Below are positions 21,970-48,222 of a stretch of DNA of 64,000 nucleotides, piece by piece; positions within the stretch are counted from its first letter, which is position 1, and the number at the start of each line of letters is the position of its first letter. Location of the stretch: the NCBI RefSeq assembly GCF_056712565.1, contig NZ_CM160072.1. One strand, written 5' to 3'. The position numbers and the translations under genes were made by a program. A model generated the notes under the pieces. That model was not told where the DNA came from and made no database searches. It saw only the letters and a list, made by a program, of their open reading frames with translations.

Positions 21970-22638
21970 ATGCGTACCACATCATTTGCGAAAGTTGCAG
22001 CTTTATGCGGCTTGTTGGCTCTGTCTGGTTGTGCCTCTAAAATCACCCAGCCAGATAAATATTCTGGTTTTTTAAACAATTACTCTGATTTAAAAGAAAC
22101 AACCTCGGCAACAGGTAAACCTGTTTTACGTTGGGTAGACCCGAGTTTTGATCAAAGCAAATATGACAGCATCGTCTGGAACCCAATCACTTATTATCCG
22201 GTACCGAAACCTTCTACCCAGGTAGGGCAGAAAGTTCTGGATAAAATTTTGAACTATACCAACACCGAAATGAAAGAAGCGATAGCGCAGCGTAAACCAC
22301 TGGTTACCACCGCTGGGCCGCGTAGTCTGATTTTCCGTGGGGCCATTACCGGTGTAGATACCAGTAAAGAAGGGCTGCAATTCTATGAAGTGGTTCCTGT
22401 TGCATTAGTGGTTGCGGGGACGCAAATGGCTACAGGCCACCGTACCATGGATACTCGCTTGTATTTTGAAGGTGAGCTGATTGATGCAGCGACTAATAAA
22501 CCGGTTATCAAGGTCGTTCGTCAGGGCGAAGGTAAAGACCTGAATAACGAAAGTACGCCAATGGCTTTCGAAAATATTAAACAAGTTATTGATGACATGG
22601 CGACCGATGCCACCATGTTTGACGTTAACAAAAAGTAG
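21970..22638 (+). CDS. ydcL: lipoprotein YdcL
   Basis: 222 aa ORF; signal peptide with lipobox LALSGCAS. Confidence 0.8.
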   Translation: MRTTSFAKVAALCGLLALSGCASKITQPDKYSGFLNNYSDLKETTSATGKPVLRWVDPSFDQSKYDSIVWNPITYYPVPKPSTQVGQKVLDKILNYTNTEMKEAIAQRKPLVTTAGPRSLIFRGAITGVDTSKEGLQFYEVVPVALVVAGTQMATGHRTMDTRLYFEGELIDAATNKPVIKVVRQGEGKDLNNESTPMAFENIKQVIDDMATDATMFDVNKK

Positions 22639-22646
22639 TTCCAGAC

Positions 22647-22674
22647 GCGCCATCGTTAGATGGCGCTTTTTATT
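22647..22674 (+). terminator. rho-independent terminator of ydcL
   Basis: Stem gcgccatc / gatggcgc, loop gtta, followed by tttttatt; overlaps the 3' end of convergent ydcO. Confidence 0.65.
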
Positions 22675-23845
22675 ATCGGTTTCTGTCAGCGATTAAATTC
22701 AACACCACGTAACAAACGCCTCCGGCAATTAATCCCCAAAACGCAGAACCAATCCCGAACAGCGTCAATCCACTTGCCGTTACCAGAAATGCCACCACCG
22801 CCGCGTCGCGCTCACGCTCATTATGCAGCGCCTGATACAAACTGCCGCCAATGGTACTCAACAGCGCAAGACCTGCCAGCATCTGGATCCAACTTACGGG
22901 CAGGGCAGCCATCATCCCGGTAATGGCACTACCAAACAGACCTGCGATCAAATAAAAAATGCCGGCAACGGCAGCGGCCAGCCAACGTTGATCTTTATCC
23001 GGATGCGCTTCCGGGCTTTGGCAAATAGCCGCGGTGATTGCCGCAATACCGACGGAATAAACGCCGAAAGGGGAAAAAACAAGCGCCAGCAATCCAGTAA
23101 ACACAATCAACGGCGAAACAGGAGCCGAATACCCGGCTGCTTTCATTGCTGCGATACCCGGTGCGTTTTGCGATGCCATCGTCACCAGAAAAAGGGGGAG
23201 TGCAACGCTCAGACTGTGAGCAAACGAAAAATCAGGGGGAATATAAGTGGGGAGAACGGGTTTAAAGACAACATCAGTTGTGACAACGTCACCTTGCGCG
23301 ATAACGATCACGATCCCAATAATCATCGCGGCAATTACCGCATAGCGCGGCGCAACGGCCCTGGTTGCCAGCCATGCCAGCAACATACTGCCACACAACG
23401 TAAATTGACCATCCAGACTGGCAAACGCCTGTAAACCAAAACGTAATAAAATCCCGGCAAGCATTGCCGCCGCAAGCGAGTGCGGAATAATGCGCATCAG
23501 ACGAGCAAAGAGTCCCGTTATGCCGCAGAGGACTATTAACACGTTGGTGACAATAAAAACGCCGATGGTTTCGTTAAGTGTTAGTCCCTGCAATCCGGTG
23601 ACCAACAAAGCCGCGCCAGGCGTTGACCATGCGGTGAGAACAGGTACGCGATACCATAATGTCAGAGCCAGCGTACTGACGCCCATTGCCAGCCCCAGCG
23701 CCGTCATCCAGCCAGAGATTTGTGCAGTGGTGGCTCCGGCGACAATCGCTGCTTGCCAGATTATTGCCGCTGAACTGGCGTAGCCAATTAATACCGCCAG
23801 AAACCCCGCCAGTAGCGTGGGTGGAGGAATAGAAAACAGACGCAT
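22673..23845 (-). CDS. ydcO: BenE-family (benzoate transporter-like) membrane protein
   Basis: Track ORF 22673..23968; start re-set to MRLFSIPPPTLLAGFLAV (about 390 aa); highly hydrophobic polytopic protein. Confidence 0.8.
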   Translation of the reverse strand: MRLFSIPPPTLLAGFLAVLIGYASSAAIIWQAAIVAGATTAQISGWMTALGLAMGVSTLALTLWYRVPVLTAWSTPGAALLVTGLQGLTLNETIGVFIVTNVLIVLCGITGLFARLMRIIPHSLAAAMLAGILLRFGLQAFASLDGQFTLCGSMLLAWLATRAVAPRYAVIAAMIIGIVIVIAQGDVVTTDVVFKPVLPTYIPPDFSFAHSLSVALPLFLVTMASQNAPGIAAMKAAGYSAPVSPLIVFTGLLALVFSPFGVYSVGIAAITAAICQSPEAHPDKDQRWLAAAVAGIFYLIAGLFGSAITGMMAALPVSWIQMLAGLALLSTIGGSLYQALHNERERDAAVVAFLVTASGLTLFGIGSAFWGLIAGGVCYVVLNLIADRNR

Positions 23846-23854
23846 AGTCACCTC

Positions 23855-23902
23855 GTGCGTTATAACGTACAGGTACCGTAGCATTTGTCCGTTATAACGC
23901 AC
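23855..23902. promoter_or_regulatory. candidate operator: two copies of the palindrome cgttataacg in the divergent ydcO-sutR control region
   Basis: gtgcgttataacg (about 23855-23867) and cgttataacgcac (about 23890-23902) are exact reverse complements; each core cgttataacg is itself palindromic; located between divergent starts of ydcO and the XRE/cupin regulator gene. Confidence 0.4.
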
Positions 23903-23936
23903 AAGTGATAAACTTCCGTTTTGCCGGAGGAGTCGC

Positions 23937-24473
23937 ATGGAAAATCTCGCTCGCTTTTTATCCACCACACTTAAACAACTACGTCAGCAGCGCGGCTGGA
24001 GTCTTTCGCGACTGGCAGAAGCGACGGGCGTTTCTAAAGCGATGTTAGGGCAGATTGAGCGTAATGAATCCAGCCCGACGGTCGCGACATTATGGAAAAT
24101 TGCCACCGGGTTGAACGTGCCATTTTCAACATTTATTTCCCCGCCGCAGTCCGCTACGCCTTCAGTTTATGATCCACAACGGCAGGCGATGGTGATCACT
24201 TCGCTGTTTCCTTATGATCCACAACTCTGCTTTGAACACTTCTCGATTCAGATGGCACCCGGTGCAATAAGCGAATCGACGCCCCATGAAAAGGGGGTAA
24301 TCGAACATGTCGTCGTCATTGATGGACAACTTGATCTGTGTGTTGATGGTGAATGGCAGAGCCTTAATTGTGGGGAAGGCGTTCGATTTGCTGCAGACGT
24401 CACGCATGTCTATCGTAATGGTGGAGAGCAAACCGTACATTTTCATTCCCTCATCCATTACCCGCGCAGTTAA
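23937..24473 (+). CDS. sutR: XRE-family HTH + cupin-domain transcriptional regulator (SutR/YdcN)
   Basis: 178 aa ORF; N-terminal HTH (LSRLAEATGVSKAMLGQIERNES) and C-terminal cupin-like domain. Confidence 0.8.
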   Translation: MENLARFLSTTLKQLRQQRGWSLSRLAEATGVSKAMLGQIERNESSPTVATLWKIATGLNVPFSTFISPPQSATPSVYDPQRQAMVITSLFPYDPQLCFEHFSIQMAPGAISESTPHEKGVIEHVVVIDGQLDLCVDGEWQSLNCGEGVRFAADVTHVYRNGGEQTVHFHSLIHYPRS

Positions 24474-24545
24474 GCGGGAAAACTATTTCGCAACGTCGCG
24501 CTTGTGGCTAAAATAGCCGCCATTTTTCAGCTACTGGATAAGAAA

Positions 24546-26507
24546 GTGACCGTATCTTCTCATCGTCTTGAACTGTTAAGCCCGGCACGCGATGCCGCCA
24601 TTGCCCGCGAAGCTATTTTGCACGGTGCCGATGCTGTTTATATCGGCGGCCCTGGTTTTGGTGCCCGTCATAATGCCAGTAATAGCCTGAAAGATATTGC
24701 CGAGTTGGTGCCGTTTGCCCATCGTTATGGTGCAAAAATTTTCGTCACGCTTAACACCATTTTGCATGATGATGAGCTGGAACCCGCGCAACGGCTGATT
24801 ACTGACCTCTACCAGACCGGTGTCGATGCGCTGATTGTTCAGGATATGGGGATTCTGGAACTTGATATTCCGCCGATTGAACTGCACGCCAGTACGCAGT
24901 GCGATATTCGTACAGTAGAAAAAGCGAAGTTCCTCTCTGATGTTGGCTTCACGCAGATTGTGCTGGCGCGAGAGCTGAATCTTGAGCAGCTCCGCGCGAT
25001 TCACCAGGCCACGGACGCGACCATTGAATTCTTTATTCATGGCGCATTGTGCGTGGCCTATTCGGGTCAGTGCTACATTTCTCATGCGCAAACAGGGCGT
25101 AGCGCCAACCGTGGCGATTGCTCGCAGGCGTGCCGTTTGCCATACACATTGAAAGACGATCAGGGGCGGGTGGTTTCCTATGAAAAACATCTGCTGTCGA
25201 TGAAAGATAACGATCAGACTGCCAACCTCGGCGCGCTGATTGATGCTGGCGTACGCTCCTTCAAGATTGAAGGGCGTTACAAAGATATGAGCTACGTGAA
25301 GAATATCACCGCCCATTATCGTCAGATGCTGGATGCCATTATTGAAGAACGTGGCGATCTGGCGCGCGCTTCATCAGGTCGTACTGAACATTTCTTTGTT
25401 CCATCGACGGAAAAGACTTTCCACCGTGGTAGCACAGATTATTTTGTGAATGCCCGTAAAGGCGATATTGGCGCGTTCGATTCGCCGAAATTTATCGGCC
25501 TGCCGGTGGGCGAAGTATTGAAAGTAGCGAAAGATCATATTGATGTTGCCGTTACCGAGCCACTGGCAAATGGCGATGGCCTGAACGTGATGATTAAACG
25601 TGAAGTCGTCGGTTTTCGTGCCAATACGGTAGAGAAAACCGGAGAAAATCAGTACCGCGTCTGGCCCAATGAAATGCCAGCAGATTTGCACAAAATTCGC
25701 CCGCATCACCCACTAAACCGTAATCTTGATCATAACTGGCAGCAGGCACTGACAAAAACCTCCAGCGAACGTCGGGTGGCGGTAGACATTGAACTGGGCG
25801 GCTGGCAGGAACAACTGATTCTGACCCTCACCAGTGAAGAGGGTGTCAGCATCACACATACGCTGGACGGGCAGTTCGACGAAGCCAATAACGCCGAAAA
25901 AGCAATGAACAATCTGAAGGATGGTCTGGCAAAACTGGGGCAAACCATCTATTACGCCCGCAATGTGCAAATTAATTTGCCGGGGGCGCTGTTTGTACCA
26001 AACAGTCTGTTAAACCAGTTCCGCCGTGAAGCCGCCGATATGCTTGATGCTGCGCGTCTTGCCAGTTACCAGCGCGGCAGCCGTAAACCGGTTGCTGATC
26101 CTGCGCCAGTTTATCCGCAAACGCATCTGAGTTTCCTCGCGAACGTATACAACCAGAAAGCGCGTGAATTTTATCATCGCTATGGTGTGCAACTGATTGA
26201 CGCGGCGTATGAGGCACATGAAGAGAAGGGCGAAGTCCCGGTGATGATCACCAAGCATTGTCTGCGCTTTGCCTTCAATCTGTGCCCGAAACAGGCGAAA
26301 GGCAATATCAAAAGCTGGAAGGCGACGCCAATGCAACTGGTTAACGGCGATGAAGTATTAACGCTAAAGTTTGATTGCCGCCCATGCGAGATGCACGTCA
26401 TTGGCAAAATCAAAAATCACATACTGAAAATGCCGTTACCGGGAAGCGTAGTGGCATCCGTAAGTCCGGATGATCTGCTGAAAACATTGCCGAAGCGAAA
26501 AGGGTAA
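24546..26507 (+). CDS. ydcP: peptidase-U32-family protein (23S rRNA 5-hydroxycytidine synthase RlhA/YdcP)
   Basis: Track ORF 24504..26507; probable GTG start near 24546 gives about 653 aa; U32 family signature region (EFFIHGALCVAYSGQCYIS). Confidence 0.8.
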   Translation: MTVSSHRLELLSPARDAAIAREAILHGADAVYIGGPGFGARHNASNSLKDIAELVPFAHRYGAKIFVTLNTILHDDELEPAQRLITDLYQTGVDALIVQDMGILELDIPPIELHASTQCDIRTVEKAKFLSDVGFTQIVLARELNLEQLRAIHQATDATIEFFIHGALCVAYSGQCYISHAQTGRSANRGDCSQACRLPYTLKDDQGRVVSYEKHLLSMKDNDQTANLGALIDAGVRSFKIEGRYKDMSYVKNITAHYRQMLDAIIEERGDLARASSGRTEHFFVPSTEKTFHRGSTDYFVNARKGDIGAFDSPKFIGLPVGEVLKVAKDHIDVAVTEPLANGDGLNVMIKREVVGFRANTVEKTGENQYRVWPNEMPADLHKIRPHHPLNRNLDHNWQQALTKTSSERRVAVDIELGGWQEQLILTLTSEEGVSITHTLDGQFDEANNAEKAMNNLKDGLAKLGQTIYYARNVQINLPGALFVPNSLLNQFRREAADMLDAARLASYQRGSRKPVADPAPVYPQTHLSFLANVYNQKAREFYHRYGVQLIDAAYEAHEEKGEVPVMITKHCLRFAFNLCPKQAKGNIKSWKATPMQLVNGDEVLTLKFDCRPCEMHVIGKIKNHILKMPLPGSVVASVSPDDLLKTLPKRKG

Positions 26508-26554
26508 AACGCCAGTTTTCGGGTTACTCACCACTCATCAAATCTGCATGATAT

Positions 26555-26590
26555 TGCCTGCCGGGTAAGGTGTCACGCCGCATCCGGCAA
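26555..26590. repeat. REP-like palindromic element
   Basis: gccgcatccggcaa-type REP core between convergent ydcP and yncJ. Confidence 0.4.
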
Positions 26591-26598
26591 CACACGAC

Positions 26599-26829
26599 TC
26601 AACGCTGTCCCGCTTCTGGTTTGCGCGATTTTTGCCAGTAAAAATGCTCGCGCAAACCTTCCGCCGACTCTTCCGCCACAGCACGCAATTCATCGCTGTC
26701 CGCTTCATGACGCAACTGATGATCCACATTCTTTACCCACATAAATTCATGTCCTTTGTGCCCTGCCATGAGTTGTCCTGAGAACAGTGCACACGTTAAT
26801 AAGACAACCGATAACGCCTTCGAAAACAT
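26599..26829 (-). CDS. yncJ: small secreted protein YncJ (DUF2554)
   Basis: 76 aa ORF with signal peptide MFSKALSVVLLTCALFSGQLMA. Confidence 0.7.
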   Translation of the reverse strand: MFSKALSVVLLTCALFSGQLMAGHKGHEFMWVKNVDHQLRHEADSDELRAVAEESAEGLREHFYWQKSRKPEAGQR

Positions 26830-27008
26830 CCCGCCACCTTTTTCTAACCTTTTGCCGCTATGATGCCGATCGTTTCTTGAGGTTATTATTCAGTTTTGCA
26901 AATTAGAGCAAAGAAATTCTGGAATCTTCCTTCCTGATTTTGCATTGCATTCTGCCGTTGCGGCGATTTAGTGCTATTTTCGAGCACATTACACACGGAG
27001 GTAAACTT

Positions 27009-27233
<225 letters not shown>

Positions 27234-27311
27234 TTACAGTTAATGAAAAGTTGTCATTTTTAACAACTGATATAGACTGCCGAATCATCTGCACATAATT
27301 ACGATTCGATA

Positions 27312-28718
27312 ATGAAAAAATACCAGCAGCTTGCAGAACAATTACGCGAGCAGATTGCGTCGGGTATCTGGCAACCCGGCGATCGTTTGCCTTCGTTGCG
27401 TGACCAGGTGGCGCTTTCTGGCATGAGCTTTATGACTGTCAGCCATGCCTATCAGTTGCTCGAAAGTCAGGGATATATTATCGCGCGACCGCAATCGGGT
27501 TATTACGTTGCGCCACAGGCAATAAAAATGCCGAAAGCGACAGTCATTCCAGTCACACGAGATGAAGCAGTCGATATCAACACCTATATTTTTGATATGT
27601 TGCAGGCCAGTCGCGATCCGTCGGTAGTTCCGTTTGCCTCGGCCTTTCCCGACCCGCGACTTTTCCCCCTCCAACAACTAAACCGCTCGCTGGCGCAGGT
27701 AAGCAAAACCGCCACGGCGATGAGCGTGATTGAAAACTTACCGCCAGGAAACGTAGAACTGCGTCAGGCTATTGCTCGTCGCTATGCCTTACAGGGCATC
27801 ACCATTTCACCTGATGAAATTGTCATTACCGCCGGGGCGTTAGAGGCATTAAACCTCAGTTTGCAAGCGGTAACTGAACCGGGCGATTGGGTGATAGTAG
27901 AGAATCCTTGTTTCTACGGCGCGTTGCAGGCGCTGGAGCGGTTACGGCTGAAGGCGTTATCGGTAGCGACGGATATTAAAGAAGGGATCGATCTTCAGGC
28001 GCTGGAACTGGCGTTGCAGGAGTATCCGGTGAAAGCGTGCTGGCTGATGACTAATAGCCAGAACCCACTTGGATTTACCTTAACGCCGCAGAAAAAAGTG
28101 CGGCTGGTAGCGTTGCTCAATCAGTACAACGTAACGCTGATTGAAGATGACGTTTATAGCGAACTTTATTTTGGACGGGAAAAACCGCTGCCTGCGAAAG
28201 CGTGGGATCGCCACGATGGTGTTTTGCATTGCTCTTCGTTTTCGAAATGTCTGGTGCCTGGTTTTCGTATTGGTTGGGTCGCCGCCGGAAAACATGCACG
28301 TAAAATTCAACGCTTGCAGTTGATGAGTACGCTTTCCACCAGCTCACCGATGCAGCTTGCGCTGGTGGATTACCTTTCTACTCGCCGATACGATGCTCAT
28401 CTTCGTCGCCTGCGTCGCCAGCTTGCGGAACGTAAACAACGCGCCTGGCAGGCTTTGCTGCGTTATCTGCCTGCGGAAGTCAAAATTCATCACAATGACA
28501 GCGGTTATTTTCTCTGGCTGGAGCTCCCCGAGCCGTTAGATGCAGGAGAATTAAGCCTGGTGGCACTGACGCATCATATCAGTATTGCGCCGGGTAATAT
28601 GTTTTCTACCGGTGAAAACTGGTCACGTTTTTTTCGTTTTAATACCGCGTGGCAGTGGGGAGAACGTGAAGAACAGGCGGTAAAACAATTAGGCAAACTT
28701 ATTCAAGAACGGCTGTAA
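27312..28718 (+). CDS. ydcR: MocR-subfamily GntR regulator with aminotransferase-like domain
   Basis: 468 aa ORF; N-terminal wHTH, C-terminal fold-type-I PLP domain. Confidence 0.8.
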   Translation: MKKYQQLAEQLREQIASGIWQPGDRLPSLRDQVALSGMSFMTVSHAYQLLESQGYIIARPQSGYYVAPQAIKMPKATVIPVTRDEAVDINTYIFDMLQASRDPSVVPFASAFPDPRLFPLQQLNRSLAQVSKTATAMSVIENLPPGNVELRQAIARRYALQGITISPDEIVITAGALEALNLSLQAVTEPGDWVIVENPCFYGALQALERLRLKALSVATDIKEGIDLQALELALQEYPVKACWLMTNSQNPLGFTLTPQKKVRLVALLNQYNVTLIEDDVYSELYFGREKPLPAKAWDRHDGVLHCSSFSKCLVPGFRIGWVAAGKHARKIQRLQLMSTLSTSSPMQLALVDYLSTRRYDAHLRRLRRQLAERKQRAWQALLRYLPAEVKIHHNDSGYFLWLELPEPLDAGELSLVALTHHISIAPGNMFSTGENWSRFFRFNTAWQWGEREEQAVKQLGKLIQERL

Positions 28719-28962
28719 TAGCGTTTAATTTAATTCCTCTCAGGTTGGGTAATATGAATTTCGAATAGCAGTCATATATCCTAACTCCTTGTCTATACTC
28801 CAGAAGATAACCTTACAGACGGCATAATGCGCGGTAGCTCACAACCTGATTAAATTTTCTCAGGGCCGAAGGTGTGCCTGCAAGCCGCCGTCTATGGTTA
28901 AACAAGGAGATATTTTTACGGCACGGCGGCTGAACAATTAATTACGACAGGAGTAAGACCTT

Positions 28963-30108
28963 ATGAGCAAGACATTTGCCCGCAGCAGCCTGTGTGCGCT
29001 CAGCATGACAATAATGACCGCTCACGCCGCCGAACCGCCTACCAATTTAGAGAATCCGGAAGGGCGACTGGATATTATCGCCTGGCCGGGATACATCGAA
29101 CGCGGACAAACTGATAAACAGTACGACTGGGTAACGCAATTCGAAAAAGAGACAGGCTGCGCGGTGAATGTTAAAACCGCCGCGACTTCCGATGAAATGG
29201 TCAGTCTGATGGTCAAAGGGGGTTACGATCTGGTTACGGCATCCGGCGATGCCTCGCTGCGTTTGATTATGGGCAAACGCGTGCAGCCAATTAATACCGC
29301 CTTGATTCCCAACTGGAAAGCGCTCGATCCGCGCGTGGTTAAAGGCGACTGGTTTAACGTTGGCGGCAAAGTTTACGGCACACCTTACCAATGGGGGCCG
29401 AACCTGCTGATGTACATCACTAAAACCTTCCCGACGCCGCCGGATAGCTGGCAAGTGGTTTTTGTTGAGCAGAATCTGCCGGACGGCAAGAGCAATAAAG
29501 GCCGGGTACAGGCTTATGATGGCCCTATCTACATTGCGGATGCCGCGTTGTTCGTCAAAGCCACGCAGCCACAGTTGGGCATCAGCGATCCGTATCAACT
29601 CACCGAAGAACAGTATCAGGCGGTGCTGAAAGTGCTGCGCGATCAACATAGTTTGATCCATCGCTACTGGCATGACACTACCGTGCAAATGAGCGATTTC
29701 AAAAACGAGGGTGTGGTTGCTTCCAGTGCATGGCCCTATCAGGCCAACGCCCTGAAAGCCGAAGGCCAGCCTGTCGCTACCGTTTTCCCGAAGGAGGGCG
29801 TTACCGGTTGGGCTGACACCACCATGCTACATAGCGAAGCGAAACATCCGGTTTGCGCCTACAAATGGATGAACTGGTCATTAACCCCAAAAGTGCAGGG
29901 CGATGTGGCGGCCTGGTTTGGCTCGTTACCAGTAGTGCCGCAAGGGTGTAAAGCCAGTCCGTTATTAGGCGAGAAAGGTTGTGAAACAAACGGTTTTAAC
30001 TATTTCGATAAAATCGCCTTCTGGAAAACGCCTATAGCAGAAGGGGGCAAGTTTGTTCCCTACAGTCGCTGGACGCAGGATTACATTGCCATTATGGGCG
30101 GTCGCTAA
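28963..30108 (+). CDS. ydcS: periplasmic polyamine-type ABC substrate-binding protein
   Basis: 381 aa ORF with signal peptide; PotD/PotF-like; first gene of ydcSTUV-patD cluster. Confidence 0.85.
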   Translation: MSKTFARSSLCALSMTIMTAHAAEPPTNLENPEGRLDIIAWPGYIERGQTDKQYDWVTQFEKETGCAVNVKTAATSDEMVSLMVKGGYDLVTASGDASLRLIMGKRVQPINTALIPNWKALDPRVVKGDWFNVGGKVYGTPYQWGPNLLMYITKTFPTPPDSWQVVFVEQNLPDGKSNKGRVQAYDGPIYIADAALFVKATQPQLGISDPYQLTEEQYQAVLKVLRDQHSLIHRYWHDTTVQMSDFKNEGVVASSAWPYQANALKAEGQPVATVFPKEGVTGWADTTMLHSEAKHPVCAYKWMNWSLTPKVQGDVAAWFGSLPVVPQGCKASPLLGEKGCETNGFNYFDKIAFWKTPIAEGGKFVPYSRWTQDYIAIMGGR

Positions 30109-30125
30109 CTTCGCTGGGGTGTTTT

Positions 30126-31139
30126 ATGACGTACGCAGTGGAGTTTGACAACGTCTCACGGTTGTACGGTGACGTGCGCGCAGTAAATGGCGTCAGTATT
30201 GCGATAAAAGATGGTGAGTTCTTCTCTATGCTGGGGCCGTCCGGCTCCGGCAAAACCACTTGCCTGCGCCTGATTGCTGGATTCGAACAGCTTTCCGGCG
30301 GGGCTATCTCTATTTTTGGTACGCCCGCCAGCAATCTGCCACCGTGGGAGCGGGACGTGAATACTGTCTTCCAGGACTACGCGCTATTTCCGCATATGTC
30401 GATTCTTGACAACGTAGCCTACGGGCTGATGGTCAAAGGCGTGAATAAAAAGCAGCGGCACGCAATGGCGCAAGAGGCGCTTGAGAAAGTGGCGTTGGGG
30501 TTTGTACAGCAACGTAAACCGTCACAACTTTCTGGTGGTCAGCGCCAGCGAGTCGCCATCGCCAGAGCACTGGTGAACGAACCGCGTGTGTTGTTGCTGG
30601 ATGAACCGCTCGGCGCGCTGGATCTCAAATTGCGCGAGCAAATGCAGCTTGAGCTGAAAAAGCTGCAACAGTCTCTCGGTATCACTTTTATCTTCGTTAC
30701 CCACGATCAGGGCGAAGCGTTATCGATGTCCGATCGGGTGGCGGTTTTCAATAATGGACGCATTGAACAGGTCGATTCTCCGCGCGATCTCTATATGCGC
30801 CCGCGCACGCCGTTTGTTGCGGGATTCGTTGGGACATCGAATGTTTTTGATGGACTGATGGCAGAGAAACTTTGTGGCATGACGGGAAGCTTCGCACTAC
30901 GACCGGAACATATCCGCCTCAACACCCCTGGAGAAATGCAGGCTAATGGCACGATCCAGGCGGTGCAGTATCAGGGCGCGGCAACTCGTTTTGAACTGAC
31001 ACTGAGCGGCGGTGAAAAACTGCTGGTGAGTCAGGCCAATATGACAGGCGAAGAACTGCCTGCCACGCTCACGCCCGGACAACAGGTGATGGTTTCCTGG
31101 TCGCGTGATGTGATGGTGGCGCTGGTTGAGGAGAGGTGA
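30126..31139 (+). CDS. ydcT: ABC transporter ATP-binding protein
   Basis: 337 aa; Walker A GPSGSGKTT, signature LSGGQRQR, Walker B LLLDEP. Confidence 0.9.
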   Translation: MTYAVEFDNVSRLYGDVRAVNGVSIAIKDGEFFSMLGPSGSGKTTCLRLIAGFEQLSGGAISIFGTPASNLPPWERDVNTVFQDYALFPHMSILDNVAYGLMVKGVNKKQRHAMAQEALEKVALGFVQQRKPSQLSGGQRQRVAIARALVNEPRVLLLDEPLGALDLKLREQMQLELKKLQQSLGITFIFVTHDQGEALSMSDRVAVFNNGRIEQVDSPRDLYMRPRTPFVAGFVGTSNVFDGLMAEKLCGMTGSFALRPEHIRLNTPGEMQANGTIQAVQYQGAATRFELTLSGGEKLLVSQANMTGEELPATLTPGQQVMVSWSRDVMVALVEER

Positions 31140-32081
31140 ATGGCGATGAACGTATTGCAATCACCTTCACGTCCAGGTCTGGGTAAGGTGCCCGGTTTCT
31201 TCTGGCGTAATCCGGGGCTGGGGCTGTTTTTGCTGCTGCTTGGCCCGCTAATGTGGTTTGGCATTGTCTATTTCGGCTCGCTGCTGACGCTGTTATGGCA
31301 GGGCTTTTATACCTTTGACGATTTCACCATGTCGGTAACGCCGGAACTGACGCTGGCGAATATCCGTGCGCTGTTTAATCCGGCGAATTACGACATCATT
31401 GTCCGCACGCTGACCATGGCTGTGGCGGTGACTATCGCCAGCGCCATTCTGGCTTTTCCAATGGCGTGGTATATGGCGCGCTATACCAGCGGAAAAATGA
31501 AAGCGTTTTTTTATATTGCGGTAATGTTGCCGATGTGGGCGAGCTACATTGTTAAAGCCTATGCCTGGACGTTATTGCTGGCAAAAGATGGCGTGGCGCA
31601 GTGGTTTTTACAACATCTGGGGCTGGAACCACTGCTGACTGCGTTCCTCACGCTACCGGCGGTGGGCGGCAATACGCTGTCAACTTCCGGGCTGGGGCGC
31701 TTTCTGGTGTTTCTCTATATCTGGTTGCCGTTCATGATCCTCCCGGTGCAGGCGGCGCTTGAGCGTTTGCCGCCGTCATTGTTGCAGGCGTCGGCTGATC
31801 TTGGCGCACGTCCACGACAAACCTTTCGCTATGTGGTGCTGCCGCTGGCAATCCCGGGTATTGCCGCTGGCTCTATCTTTACCTTCTCACTCACGCTGGG
31901 CGATTTTATTGTCCCGCAGCTGGTTGGCCCTCCAGGATATTTTATCGGCAATATGGTTTATTCCCAGCAGGGGGCGATTGGCAATATGCCGATGGCGGCG
32001 GCATTCACCCTGGTGCCGATTGTTCTCATCGCACTCTATCTGGCGTTTGTGAAACGTCTGGGAGCGTTCGATGCACTCTGA
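31140..32081 (+). CDS. ydcU: ABC transporter permease
   Basis: 313 aa polytopic membrane protein immediately after ydcT. Confidence 0.85.
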
Positions 32082-45769: not shown

Positions 45770-46520
45770 TAATCAAACTTCTGGACAACCAAAGCCAGAG
45801 CCAGAAGAATGTGTGAAAGAGCAAAAAATAACAGATCATTTTAAAATAATGATTGATAAGGCTCGTAAGGCACAAAAGTTGGTTTTGATAAAAAGAGCAG
45901 ATGATCTTTTGAGATGGGGAGCACAGGAGGAATATGATTTCAGTAAGATCTTTGGTGTTAAAGGAAATAAGGAGGTTAATATAAGAAAATATGGACATAA
46001 TACAGGTAGGCGCATGAATGCTAGATTTCTTATGATGGATGGTGTGAGAAGATTAATGATTATAGCTAATGATTTAACAATGAGCAGTTTTATAAATTAT
46101 ACAGGTTGTAATGAATTTGCAGCATTCGTCAGCCCAAGTAAGGATATGCCCTATATAATTAACATAGGCGCAAAATTTGAGTATAGAGATGGCAAAAAAA
46201 ATCCAGTAACGGGAAAGGATTCTCATGTTGCTACTTTATGTCATGAAATGTCTCATATTCAGTGGTATTATGGGGATAATAAAAAAGGTGGTATGTGGTC
46301 ACAGGATTATACAACTACTGATAAATATTCAACGTGCAAAGAGGATGAAGTTTCATATGACGAACATATCCGTATTGCAACTAAACTGATCTCTAAACAA
46401 AAAGATCAAATATTTGAGAATGCATATAACATAGAAAGATATTTTGAAATAAGATTAATTGAAAGTGAGATAGACTCGATTGATGATGAAATATTAAGCA
46501 ATTCAGTTAAGAAAAAATAG
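45759..46520 (+). CDS. putative T6SS cargo toxin with HExxH zinc-metallopeptidase-like motif (family unassigned)
   Basis: AT-rich ORF in track 45723..46520; probable ATG at about 45759 (AGGA RBS) overlaps the vgrG stop; contains TLCHEMSHIQWYYGD (HExxH); no signal peptide; directly downstream of and co-oriented with vgrG. Confidence 0.55.
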   Translation: MDDNNQTSGQPKPEPEECVKEQKITDHFKIMIDKARKAQKLVLIKRADDLLRWGAQEEYDFSKIFGVKGNKEVNIRKYGHNTGRRMNARFLMMDGVRRLMIIANDLTMSSFINYTGCNEFAAFVSPSKDMPYIINIGAKFEYRDGKKNPVTGKDSHVATLCHEMSHIQWYYGDNKKGGMWSQDYTTTDKYSTCKEDEVSYDEHIRIATKLISKQKDQIFENAYNIERYFEIRLIESEIDSIDDEILSNSVKKK

Positions 46521-46572
46521 CGGAATTAGAAAAAGCACTTCTCCATTAACTAATAAGTCGAGAAATATATTA

Positions 46573-47292
46573 ATGCTGCAAGCTATAAAAAAAATCATAA
46601 TAATGACAATCGTAAATATTATATTTTTCTATTCCTTTCAATCGACTGCGGATGAAATGGTTTTAATAAAAAAATACGGGTTTGGGCTTGAGAGAGATAT
46701 CAAAGGAAGGCCATTAATTTATCCTATCGAAAATTATGATGAGTGTAAGAAAAAATGCAATCATATGAATTATATAGCGGATGTCAATGCTCAATTAGCT
46801 ATGAGTAAAAAAAATAACAGGATTTTTGCTAACATAACCTTTACTAACAATAGCTCTACCACGTATTTTTTTTCTAAATATTATCTACCTATGAAAGTAA
46901 AAGATGGAAAAGGAGATGAATATGATGCGATATGCAAAAAACCATTCAGAATCAACTCTGGGAATATCACGTTGGACTACTTAGGTGGTTCATGTCCTTT
47001 TGAAATTAATACGAATCCTGAACGGTGGAATACTATTAAACCAGGTCGTAGTTTTTTGTTGAGTATAACCTTAAATGATATGTATGCCTTTATACCAGGA
47101 GATAATTATTATTTTATAAAATCATCTGGCTATAAATTTGTTAATGACAAGTGGTTTACACTCAAATCAATCAATAATATTTTTCTTTATTTTTTAAATT
47201 TAAAAATTAATTGTGCTGATGATTTTTTTGATATTAATAATTTTACTACATGTAATAATTTGTTATTGGATGAAAAAAACACTTTTTATTAA
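46573..47292 (+). CDS. candidate cognate immunity protein (N-terminal signal peptide or membrane anchor; family unassigned)
   Basis: 239 aa very AT-rich ORF immediately downstream of the putative toxin; hydrophobic N-terminus MLQAIKKIIIMTIVNIIFFYSFQSTA; Cys-containing, Asn/Lys/Tyr-rich; role inferred from position only. Confidence 0.4.
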   Translation: MLQAIKKIIIMTIVNIIFFYSFQSTADEMVLIKKYGFGLERDIKGRPLIYPIENYDECKKKCNHMNYIADVNAQLAMSKKNNRIFANITFTNNSSTTYFFSKYYLPMKVKDGKGDEYDAICKKPFRINSGNITLDYLGGSCPFEINTNPERWNTIKPGRSFLLSITLNDMYAFIPGDNYYFIKSSGYKFVNDKWFTLKSINNIFLYFLNLKINCADDFFDINNFTTCNNLLLDEKNTFY

Positions 47293-47469
47293 TCAGTTAT
47301 GGGCAATTGAGGATGAAAAAAATTCTATTTACGTCACCCCTGATGAAATTTCTATAAGTATAGACGGCGATAACTTAAAGTTGCCATATTAGGAATATGG
47401 GAAAGAACACGGTGCGCCGCTTTTTTGCACTAAATAATTTACATTTTATGTTCAATAATTGATACTAAC

Positions 47470-47613
47470 ATGTTGGATATTAAAGGTGAAATTATCACAA
47501 CTGATGCGATGGGTTGCCAGAAAGATATTGCAGAGAAGATACAAAAACAGGGAGGTAATTATTTATTTGCTGTAAAAGGACATAAGGAGCGGATTAATAA
47601 AGCCTTTGAGTGA
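47470..47613 (+). mobile_element. fragment of an ISAs1-family (H-repeat-type) transposase gene
   Basis: 47-codon [50 protein letters not shown]; the DAMGCQ region resembles the C-terminal part of H-repeat/ISAs1 transposases as I recall them; no inverted repeats or full-length gene. Confidence 0.4.
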
Positions 47614-47690
47614 AACTTCCGCTGAAAATTCAGGTTAACCGCGTTCCATGCAAACAATTTTCAAATATTCATCAATAAATAAGGAGTTCC

Positions 47691-48157
47691 ATGTTTATAC
47701 GACCAGTCAAACCTTCAGATGTTGAACCATTAATGGATATGCTGCTTGACAGGGATCAATTTGATCAAGATGGCCTTCATCATGTACAAAAAACACTAAC
47801 ACATTATTTCTCAGGTCAATCTGCCGATTTATGGTTTAGTGCAGAACACTTGGGACTGGCAGGGATTGCCTACTGTGCTTCTGAAATGATGACAAATGAT
47901 GTCTGAAATTTATTAATGCTCTGGATCAGTCCTTCCCATCAGCGCCAGGGAGTGAGACATCTGCTGATTAACGAAATAGAAAAGAGCTCACAATTAAACA
48001 GGCAAGACTACTATTAGTAGAGACCGCCAGCCATATCGATTTTAGTGCCGCCCGCGCATTTTATACAAAACAGGGCTTTATCAATGAGGCGATAATACGC
48101 AATTACTATGATGTTGGTGAGGATAAATTAATCTTCACTAAAAATATGCAATCGTGA
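47691..48157 (+). pseudogene. GNAT-family N-acetyltransferase gene disrupted by frameshift/stop
   Basis: 71-codon ORF (MFIRPVKPSDVEPLMDMLL...) followed in other frames by LLMLWISPSHQRQGVRHLLINEIEK (GNAT motif A-like) and FYTKQGFINEAIIRNYYDVGEDKLIFTKNM (GNAT C-terminus). Confidence 0.5.
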
Positions 48158-48222
48158 GATAAAATATGCTTTAACTCATATGGAAACATTGCTTAAACAA
48201 CTTGGTTGCTGCATATGATTCT

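Follow-up and report, generated by a model that had tools for sequence, protein, structure and literature searches.

Effector–immunity pairs of type VI secretion systems (T6SS) in which a zinc metallopeptidase acts in the periplasm are best known from the C-terminal domain of VgrG2b with PA0261 and from Tpe1 with Tpi1, and in both the gene directly after that of the peptidase encodes an immunity protein with a signal peptide and cysteines. The immunity protein of the PA0261/Tpi type is exported, depends on DsbA and acts by complex formation (PMC6899460). M35-like toxins have also been studied. In Escherichia coli PAR, AKO63_2955 ('M35^PAR') is lethal to E. coli on export from pET22b, and this toxicity is abolished by co-expressed AKO63_2956, an immunity protein whose fold, mechanism and family are not described in the paper (PMC10673891, Commun Biol 2023). 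In BCE049, the M35-like protein of 'T6SS effector locus 1, module 5' is toxic only with a PelB leader, and the open reading frame (ORF) that lies downstream of it is not discussed as an immunity gene (PMC7904677, Front Vet Sci 2021). The zymogen of AsaP1, an M35 aspzincin of Aeromonas salmonicida (PDB 2x3a, 2x3b, 2x3c), carries a pro-domain that is N-terminally fused to the protease and removed on activation; such a built-in pro-domain ordinarily holds the proteases of this family in an inactive state. Here we analyse an ORF of 239 amino acids (aa) that follows the gene of an M35-like toxin in a stretch of 64,000 nucleotides (nt) of contig NZ_CM160072.1 (RefSeq assembly GCF_056712565.1), hereafter the window. 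It is considered likely that this ORF is the immunity gene of a T6SS effector–immunity pair, and that its product is exported and blocks the M35-like toxin in trans in the manner of a pro-domain; the copy in the window is truncated.

The locus resembles both of the M35-like systems. With the E. coli PAR pair it has in common the same two protein families, the gene order VgrG–toxin–immunity and a toxin that is lethal in the periplasm; the E. coli PAR pair differs in being a distant paralogue within a main T6SS cluster, by clpV and tssM, and in having an intact immunity protein of 308 aa. AKO63_2955, located via the paper's primer sequences, is 30% identical to the window toxin; megablast with the published AKO63_2955-2956 overlap primer gave no match. 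AKO63_2956, the downstream protein ending SLYSSMQ, is 31% identical over the core to the protein of the intact form of our ORF (BLASTP E 2e-21) and scores 277 bits on the profile of the immunity family described below. Module 5 of BCE049 occupies the same chromosomal site, between yncG and yddH, and its toxin, which requires periplasmic targeting, is essentially the same, being identical to the window's over the shared 253 residues. BCE049 differs from the window in an extra VgrG-DUF2169-PAAR-like module, a full 263-aa toxin and an immunity ORF in two pieces. Because the toxin of this locus kills only in the periplasm, an exported antidote fits.

Pairing of the two genes is strict. An immunity-family ORF lies directly after the toxin homologue, on the same strand, in 15 of the 15 loci examined; these include seven (Citrobacter, Buttiauxella, Rahnella, Escherichia sp.) found by scanning species-representative genomes with the toxin motif only, all of which are paired likewise. 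VgrG or PAAR genes adjoin the pair wherever the contig permits. An earlier, sequence-only reading had placed the ORF right after the putative toxin in the same orientation, and both genes are indeed on the plus strand, with 52 nt between the toxin stop and the ORF start. That reading had proposed an immunity role from position alone; because of the homology to a tested pair and the strict synteny, the role now goes beyond position, with further support from the periplasmic toxicity of the toxin and from the pro-domain homology set out below. Taken as comparative evidence, these results support the identification of the ORF as the putative immunity gene of this toxin.

The ORF spans 720 nt from ATG to TAA, and its translation bears the hydrophobic N-terminus that had been reported for it. 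Hydrophobicity is confined to residues 1-22, led by Lys6-Lys7 and followed by Ser-Thr-Ala26, a layout that points to a Sec signal peptide (Table 1). The extreme AT-richness noticed at the outset was also confirmed, with a GC content of 27.4%, where the window as a whole has 50.2% and vgrG 56.7%. Promoter and terminator scans around the ORF gave nothing over background. The protein has no match among Pfam or NCBIfam families. DNA at 45700-47450 of the window is 100% identical to E. coli phylogroup B2 genomes (S88, APEC O1, ATCC 11775), and the product is labelled 'hypothetical protein' in the S88 RefSeq annotation.

Relatives of the protein form a family of their own. An exhaustive phmmer search with the 273-aa protein of the intact allele recovered 88 relatives, 58 of them at E≤1e-10; a word-indexed protein search returned near-identical E. 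coli copies only. About 55 relatives are full-length proteins of 260-315 aa that share 22-39% identity and align from the signal peptide through the last residues. The hidden Markov model (HMM) built from the family matches the window ORF at E 8e-63 and the intact allele at E 8.5e-71. A strongly hydrophobic N-terminus is present in 45 of 50 relatives, with Ala at -1 in 32 of the 50. The family is further marked by a KYGYG motif, invariant N92 and Y180, four cysteines (C121, C141, C214, C227) kept in at least 45 of 52 members, and a strongly conserved C-terminal element, 'F.IRSNQV.I.IDG', which is in frame in the intact 273-aa allele and out of frame in the window allele. None of 52 family members matched Pfam at E≤1e-3, and relatives in the AlphaFold database are all named 'uncharacterized protein' and come from Escherichia, Salmonella, Citrobacter, Buttiauxella, Enterobacter and similar genera. 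The family is one of Enterobacterales and is blank in Pfam, NCBIfam and UniProt.

Some members of the family occur in settings of their own. Salmonella enterica subsp. indica and arizonae carry a 273-aa copy that is more than 90% identical to that of E. coli; because the resident Salmonella homologue is only 41% identical, a recent transfer of the immunity gene between genera is suggested. On a metagenomic contig (3379-6081), two immunity-family genes follow one another, the first preceded by toxin remnants and the second separated from it by more of them, an arrangement that looks like an array of displaced toxin–immunity modules. In a Buttiauxella agrestis locus, the immunity gene is broken into three ORFs.

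A link between this family and M35 pro-domains was obtained by profile–profile and fold comparison. Five AsaP1-like precursors were recovered from public contigs, their full pro-regions being read from DNA in which the gene calls are frameshifted. One precursor, used as the reference, can be aligned with residues 39-343 of AsaP1 (E 2e-70); its catalytic domain lies at 229-397 by its match to 1g12 or at 261-392 by Pfam Aspzincin_M35. Alignment of the immunity family with the five pro-regions by hhalign gave a probability of 95.8% and P 6.9e-9 over 96 columns, while the reversed alignment and 20 column-shuffled alignments used as controls all gave P≥0.1. All 96 columns fall within the pro-region, upstream of the catalytic domain, and correspond by offset to about residues 21-121 of AsaP1. 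Conserved residues that coincide between immunity protein and pro-domain are N92/N84, F125/F107, G138/G120, G158/G139, L167/L148 and Y171/Y152. Since HMMER found no match between the family profile and M35 precursors, the relationship is visible through fold and profile–profile comparisons only; the family profile likewise matched no solved structure by sequence.

The structure predicted by AlphaFold2 with the family alignment (mean predicted local distance difference test, pLDDT, 85.5; predicted template modelling score, pTM, 0.76) comprises a signal helix, a short N-terminal hairpin, a beta-sandwich at 71-190, a helix at 192-210, a loop between C214 and C227 that is poorly predicted, a helix at 230-251 and a hairpin at 252-265. 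The pro-domain of AsaP1 has a beta-sandwich fold, and the modelled immunity protein shows the same feature. Judged from profiles and model together, the predicted beta-sandwich core shares ancestry with the inhibitory pro-domain found in AsaP1 and other secreted M35 zymogens. Unlike that pro-domain, the immunity protein carries additional elements at both ends and two conserved cysteine pairs that are probably disulfide-bonded, and it lacks the invariant Lys-Arg of the pro-domain. It is regarded as a homologue of the pro-domain and not as a pro-domain itself, because it is encoded by a separate gene downstream of the protease and has its own predicted signal peptide. Another protease inhibitor, BsuPI of Bacillus subtilis (PDB 3isy, PF12690), is cytoplasmic and inhibits subtilisin, not a metallopeptidase, and the immunity protein has no sequence-level match to PF12690. 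Separately, a Caudoviricetes metagenome-assembled genome record contains a 155-aa fragment of the ORF under the name 'Deuterolysin metalloprotease family protein'; this automated label may reflect, independently, the similarity to the M35 pro-region.

The cognate toxin, for its part, shows homology to the catalytic domain of M35 precursors. Its family alignment shows an invariant C-H-E-x-x-H, a GGM..D motif and a C-terminal NAYNIERYF motif, and every invariant catalytic residue is retained in the window toxin. The toxin profile matches the catalytic domains of AsaP1 (E 1.4e-6) and of peptidyl-Lys metalloendopeptidase (E 1.2e-3). The toxin would ride on the PAAR–VgrG spike and act in the periplasm of the attacked cell. 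The immunity protein would be exported through its Sec signal peptide, probably be stabilised by the disulfides C121-C141 and C214-C227, and would bind and block the incoming toxin directly. Since the toxin resembles an M35 catalytic domain and the antidote an M35 pro-domain, masking of the cleft in trans would be the simplest mechanism; most likely, the active-site cleft would be occluded as it is by a pro-domain, here supplied from a separate gene. The pair may have arisen by the splitting in two of an M35 zymogen, the catalytic domain with an N-terminal helical module becoming VgrG cargo, and the pro-domain, with signal peptide, disulfides and flanks added, becoming a free periplasmic immunity protein that re-imposes a zymogen-like latency on the toxin as it arrives. 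We regard this origin as evenly poised between true and false. If true, it would document how the autoinhibitory domain of a toxin can itself be recruited as an immunity protein, of which no report was found in the searchable literature.

Comparison with other E. coli alleles changes the gene model. The ORF is real, yet it is the shortened form of a longer gene, its truncation by frameshift having escaped the sequence-only reading. The longest open version, of 822 nt and 273 aa, is the intact allele of strain FDAARGOS_1253 (WP_001337789.1). In a DNA alignment of seven alleles, all length differences are single-base changes within A or T runs. The gene extends to 47392 and is frameshifted in the window: two homopolymer deletions (Table 1) cost the window allele its last 38 residues, a helix and a beta-hairpin. 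The segment lost from frame is among the best conserved of the family (HMM positions 249-285), while the signal peptide, the pro-domain-like core and all four family-conserved cysteines lie ahead of the frameshift. The sequence is identical in S88, which was Sanger-sequenced, and in APEC O1, both early complete reference genomes, and the exact 239-aa product is found on 904 public contigs; the 239-aa form is therefore a real inherited allele and no sequencing artefact. Rescue by programmed frameshifting is unlikely, as the window allele requires a net -2 or +1 shift across two tracts. At an A AAA AAC heptamer, -1 slippage could in principle restore the 261-aa allele. DNA of the ORF is present in 639 of 5426 complete E. 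coli genomes (about 12%), with a matched length of 819-824 nt; two of 640 E. coli matches are plasmid-borne.

The window toxin is a slippage variant as well. It has A6 at 46512-46517, with a stop by 46520, where BCE049 has A7, and is short by the last 10 aa; the A7 tract restores a tail (...KKKIAELEKALLH) that is common to Salmonella and other homologues, and it is because of this that the shorter form is read as the derived one.

A wider census, made as contig counts across public assemblies in which 'at least' marks a lower bound, shows how far such decay has gone. Immunity alleles were counted on 390 contigs for the intact 273-aa form, at least 1000 for a 219-aa form, at least 1000 for a form split into 77 and 155 aa, 889 for a 261-aa form and 294 for a 263-aa form, with fragments of 87 aa and 113 aa on 522 and 497 contigs; the 239-aa allele of the window ranks among them with the 904 given above. 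For the toxin, the counts were at least 1000 for the 253-aa allele, at least 1000 for the 263-aa allele (plus 443 for a second variant of it) and 402 for a truncated allele of 149 aa. Frameshifted immunity ORFs amount to several thousand contigs, and breakage is thus more frequent in the antidote gene than in that of the toxin, an unusual situation. Orphan immunity genes that outlive their toxins are the usual pattern. The difference is in part mutational, because homopolymer tracts of at least 6 nt number 11 in the immunity gene (three of them of 8 nt) and four in the toxin gene; a mononucleotide shuffle of the immunity gene would be expected to hold about two. The idea that truncations in E. 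coli are confined to the final quarter of the gene, as selection on the core would leave them, was refuted by split alleles with early frameshifts, which are equally common.

Several of these observations count against a working immunity gene that acts as a pro-domain does. Most E. coli copies of it carry frameshifts, often near the start of the gene, and the toxin ORF beside them is usually whole; because of this it is suggested that the immunity function is dispensable across many lineages. Missing from the window allele is a C-terminal stretch that the family conserves strongly and the model folds with confidence. All five AsaP1-like pro-domains have an invariant Lys-Arg, opposite which the immunity protein has variable residues (142-143), beside the conserved Cys141; because this pair is unconserved in the immunity family, details of the contact may differ from those in the zymogen, and if the Lys is the pseudo-substrate of the pro-domain, the immunity protein must engage the toxin differently. 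An AlphaFold2 model of the two proteins fused as immunity-(GGGGS)6-toxin, built with 9 paired and 61 unpaired rows, reached a pTM of only 0.55 and left the Cys214-Cys227 loop unordered, and so lends a complex no computational support. The signal peptide itself was called by hand inspection.

It is quite possible, if a little short of an even bet, that the ORF is a dead remnant: a former immunity gene whose 239-aa product misfolds or is not made, in an AT-rich module that is silent or whose toxin is undelivered, so that there is no selection for an antidote. The deletion of the conserved, well-folded C-terminal element by the frameshifts, the rarity of the intact allele beside its broken versions, the slippage that has also cost the window toxin its 10-aa tail, and a GC content of 27-32%, typical of silenced foreign DNA, all speak for this, as does the unchanged virulence of BCE049 after deletion of effector locus 1 (PMC7904677). 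On the other hand, the core, the predicted signal peptide and the four conserved cysteines all precede the frameshift, and many genomes, S88 and APEC O1 among them, have the 239-aa allele in identical form, so that its inheritance is stable. The toxin has kept all of its catalytic residues, and total loss of immunity would therefore be risky if it ever fired. We infer residual function for the 239-aa allele, while granting a considerable chance, somewhat under half, that its product no longer protects.

Other roles for the product are far less probable than immunity. Pro-domains of secreted proteases often serve as folding chaperones, and homology to a zymogen pro-domain would also suit a trans-acting maturation factor that folds the toxin, or keeps it latent in the producer before loading, and is no antidote. 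This is very improbable: the predicted signal peptide, conserved across the family, would lead to the periplasm, whereas T6SS cargo loads in the cytoplasm; the toxin without its partner is harmless in the cytoplasm (PMC7904677), and the PAR toxin, expressed by itself, was active (PMC10673891). A second effector or a T6SS adaptor, the alternatives named by the sequence-only reading, is the least probable of all and found no support here beyond the position of the ORF in a vgrG island. The protein has a cleavable-looking Sec signal, absent from T6SS cargo and adaptors, matches neither DUF4123, DUF1795, DUF2169 nor any other Pfam or NCBIfam family, and has a homologue that neutralises toxicity instead of adding any (PMC10673891). 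There is likewise only a slim chance that it belongs to the PA0261/Tpi1 immunity family of VgrG2b-type metallopeptidase effectors, although function and compartment are analogous (PMC6899460) and M35^PAR is treated as equivalent to the VgrG2b toxin domain in PMC10673891. The C-terminal domain of VgrG2b is thermolysin-like, a gluzincin with Glu as third zinc ligand, and is fused to VgrG, whereas the window toxin is a separate cargo whose family matches aspzincins and whose profile gave zero hits against VgrG2b chains at E≤10. Going by their descriptions, the immunity proteins also stand apart, the PA0261 homologues of enterobacteria being small lipoproteins with a lipobox (PMC6899460) and the present family having predicted signal peptidase I-type signals and 260-315 residues.

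Table 1. Features of the effector–immunity locus, with positions in the 64,000-nt window
Feature	Position	Strand	Details and basis
PAAR tip protein	43061..43345	+	First island gene; NCBIfam NF033420, E 5.5e-47
VgrG spike, 801 aa	43364..45769	+	C-terminal extension; NCBIfam TIGR03361, E 9e-181
M35-like (aspzincin) zinc metallopeptidase effector (toxin), 253 aa	45759..46520	+	HEMSH and GGMWSQD motifs; weak Pfam hits, family alignment, AsaP1 profile hit, BCE049 comparison
239-aa ORF (WP_001447244.1), frameshift-truncated allele of 273-aa immunity-family gene	46573..47292	+	ORF listing, alignment to intact allele, HMM match to family positions 1-239 only
Predicted Sec signal peptide, residues 1-26	46573..46650	+	n-region KK, h-region IIIMTIVNIIFFYSF, c-region QSTA, then DEM; sole hydrophobic segment, layout common to family
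Beta-sandwich core, residues 71-190, predicted AsaP1-type pro-domain homologue	46783..47142	+	N92, C121, F125, C141, W152, L167, Y171, Y180; intact in window allele
A7 tract and T5 tract	47273-47279 and 47283-47287	+	Each one base short of intact A8/T6; joint frame shift leads to stop at 47290-47292
Displaced conserved C-terminus (...NQLWAIEDEKNSIYVTPDEISISIDGDNLKLPY*)	~47282..47392	+	+1 frame, inside ORF 47213-47392; matches family HMM positions 249-285 at about 47282-47389
ISAs1 transposase fragment	47467..47610	+	Downstream edge of AT-rich island; S88 RefSeq annotation mapped to window

The pair is part of an island in the yncG–yddH interval that holds, in order, PAAR, VgrG, the HExxH protein, the 239-aa ORF and an ISAs1 fragment. 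The toxin ATG and the vgrG stop overlap by 11 nt (45759-45769), and because of this overlap translational coupling of spike and cargo is suggested. Just upstream of the island, yncG, of the glutathione S-transferase family (41920-42520), is present as two ORFs and is frameshifted according to the S88 annotation. Fragments of ISAs1 and of a GNAT acetyltransferase gene (47691-47906 and beyond) lie between the island and yddH; those at 47467-48160 appear to be debris from older insertions at the site. RhsE remnants occupy the same position in the K-12 map. BCE049 has at this site a second module upstream of the M35 module, consisting of PAAR, VgrG, a DUF2169 adaptor and a PAAR-like effector and followed by an ISAs1 remnant (22158-31833 of the BCE049 locus DNA); the yncG–yddH site therefore accumulates vgrG cassettes.

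One homologous pair, that of E. coli PAR, had already been tested; beyond the searchable literature lie the family as defined here, the homology that links it to M35 pro-domains and the evidence from allele counts of widespread immunity-gene decay. Together they provide an evidence-based name for a 'hypothetical protein' carried by about one in eight complete E. coli genomes, mainly of extraintestinal pathogenic lineages such as S88 and APEC O1. The pro-domain homology offers a concrete, testable mechanism by which T6SS protease toxins of this class would be neutralised, and hints at the origin of the immunity protein. The census, in turn, bears on whether the pathogens that carry this effector module continue to use it.

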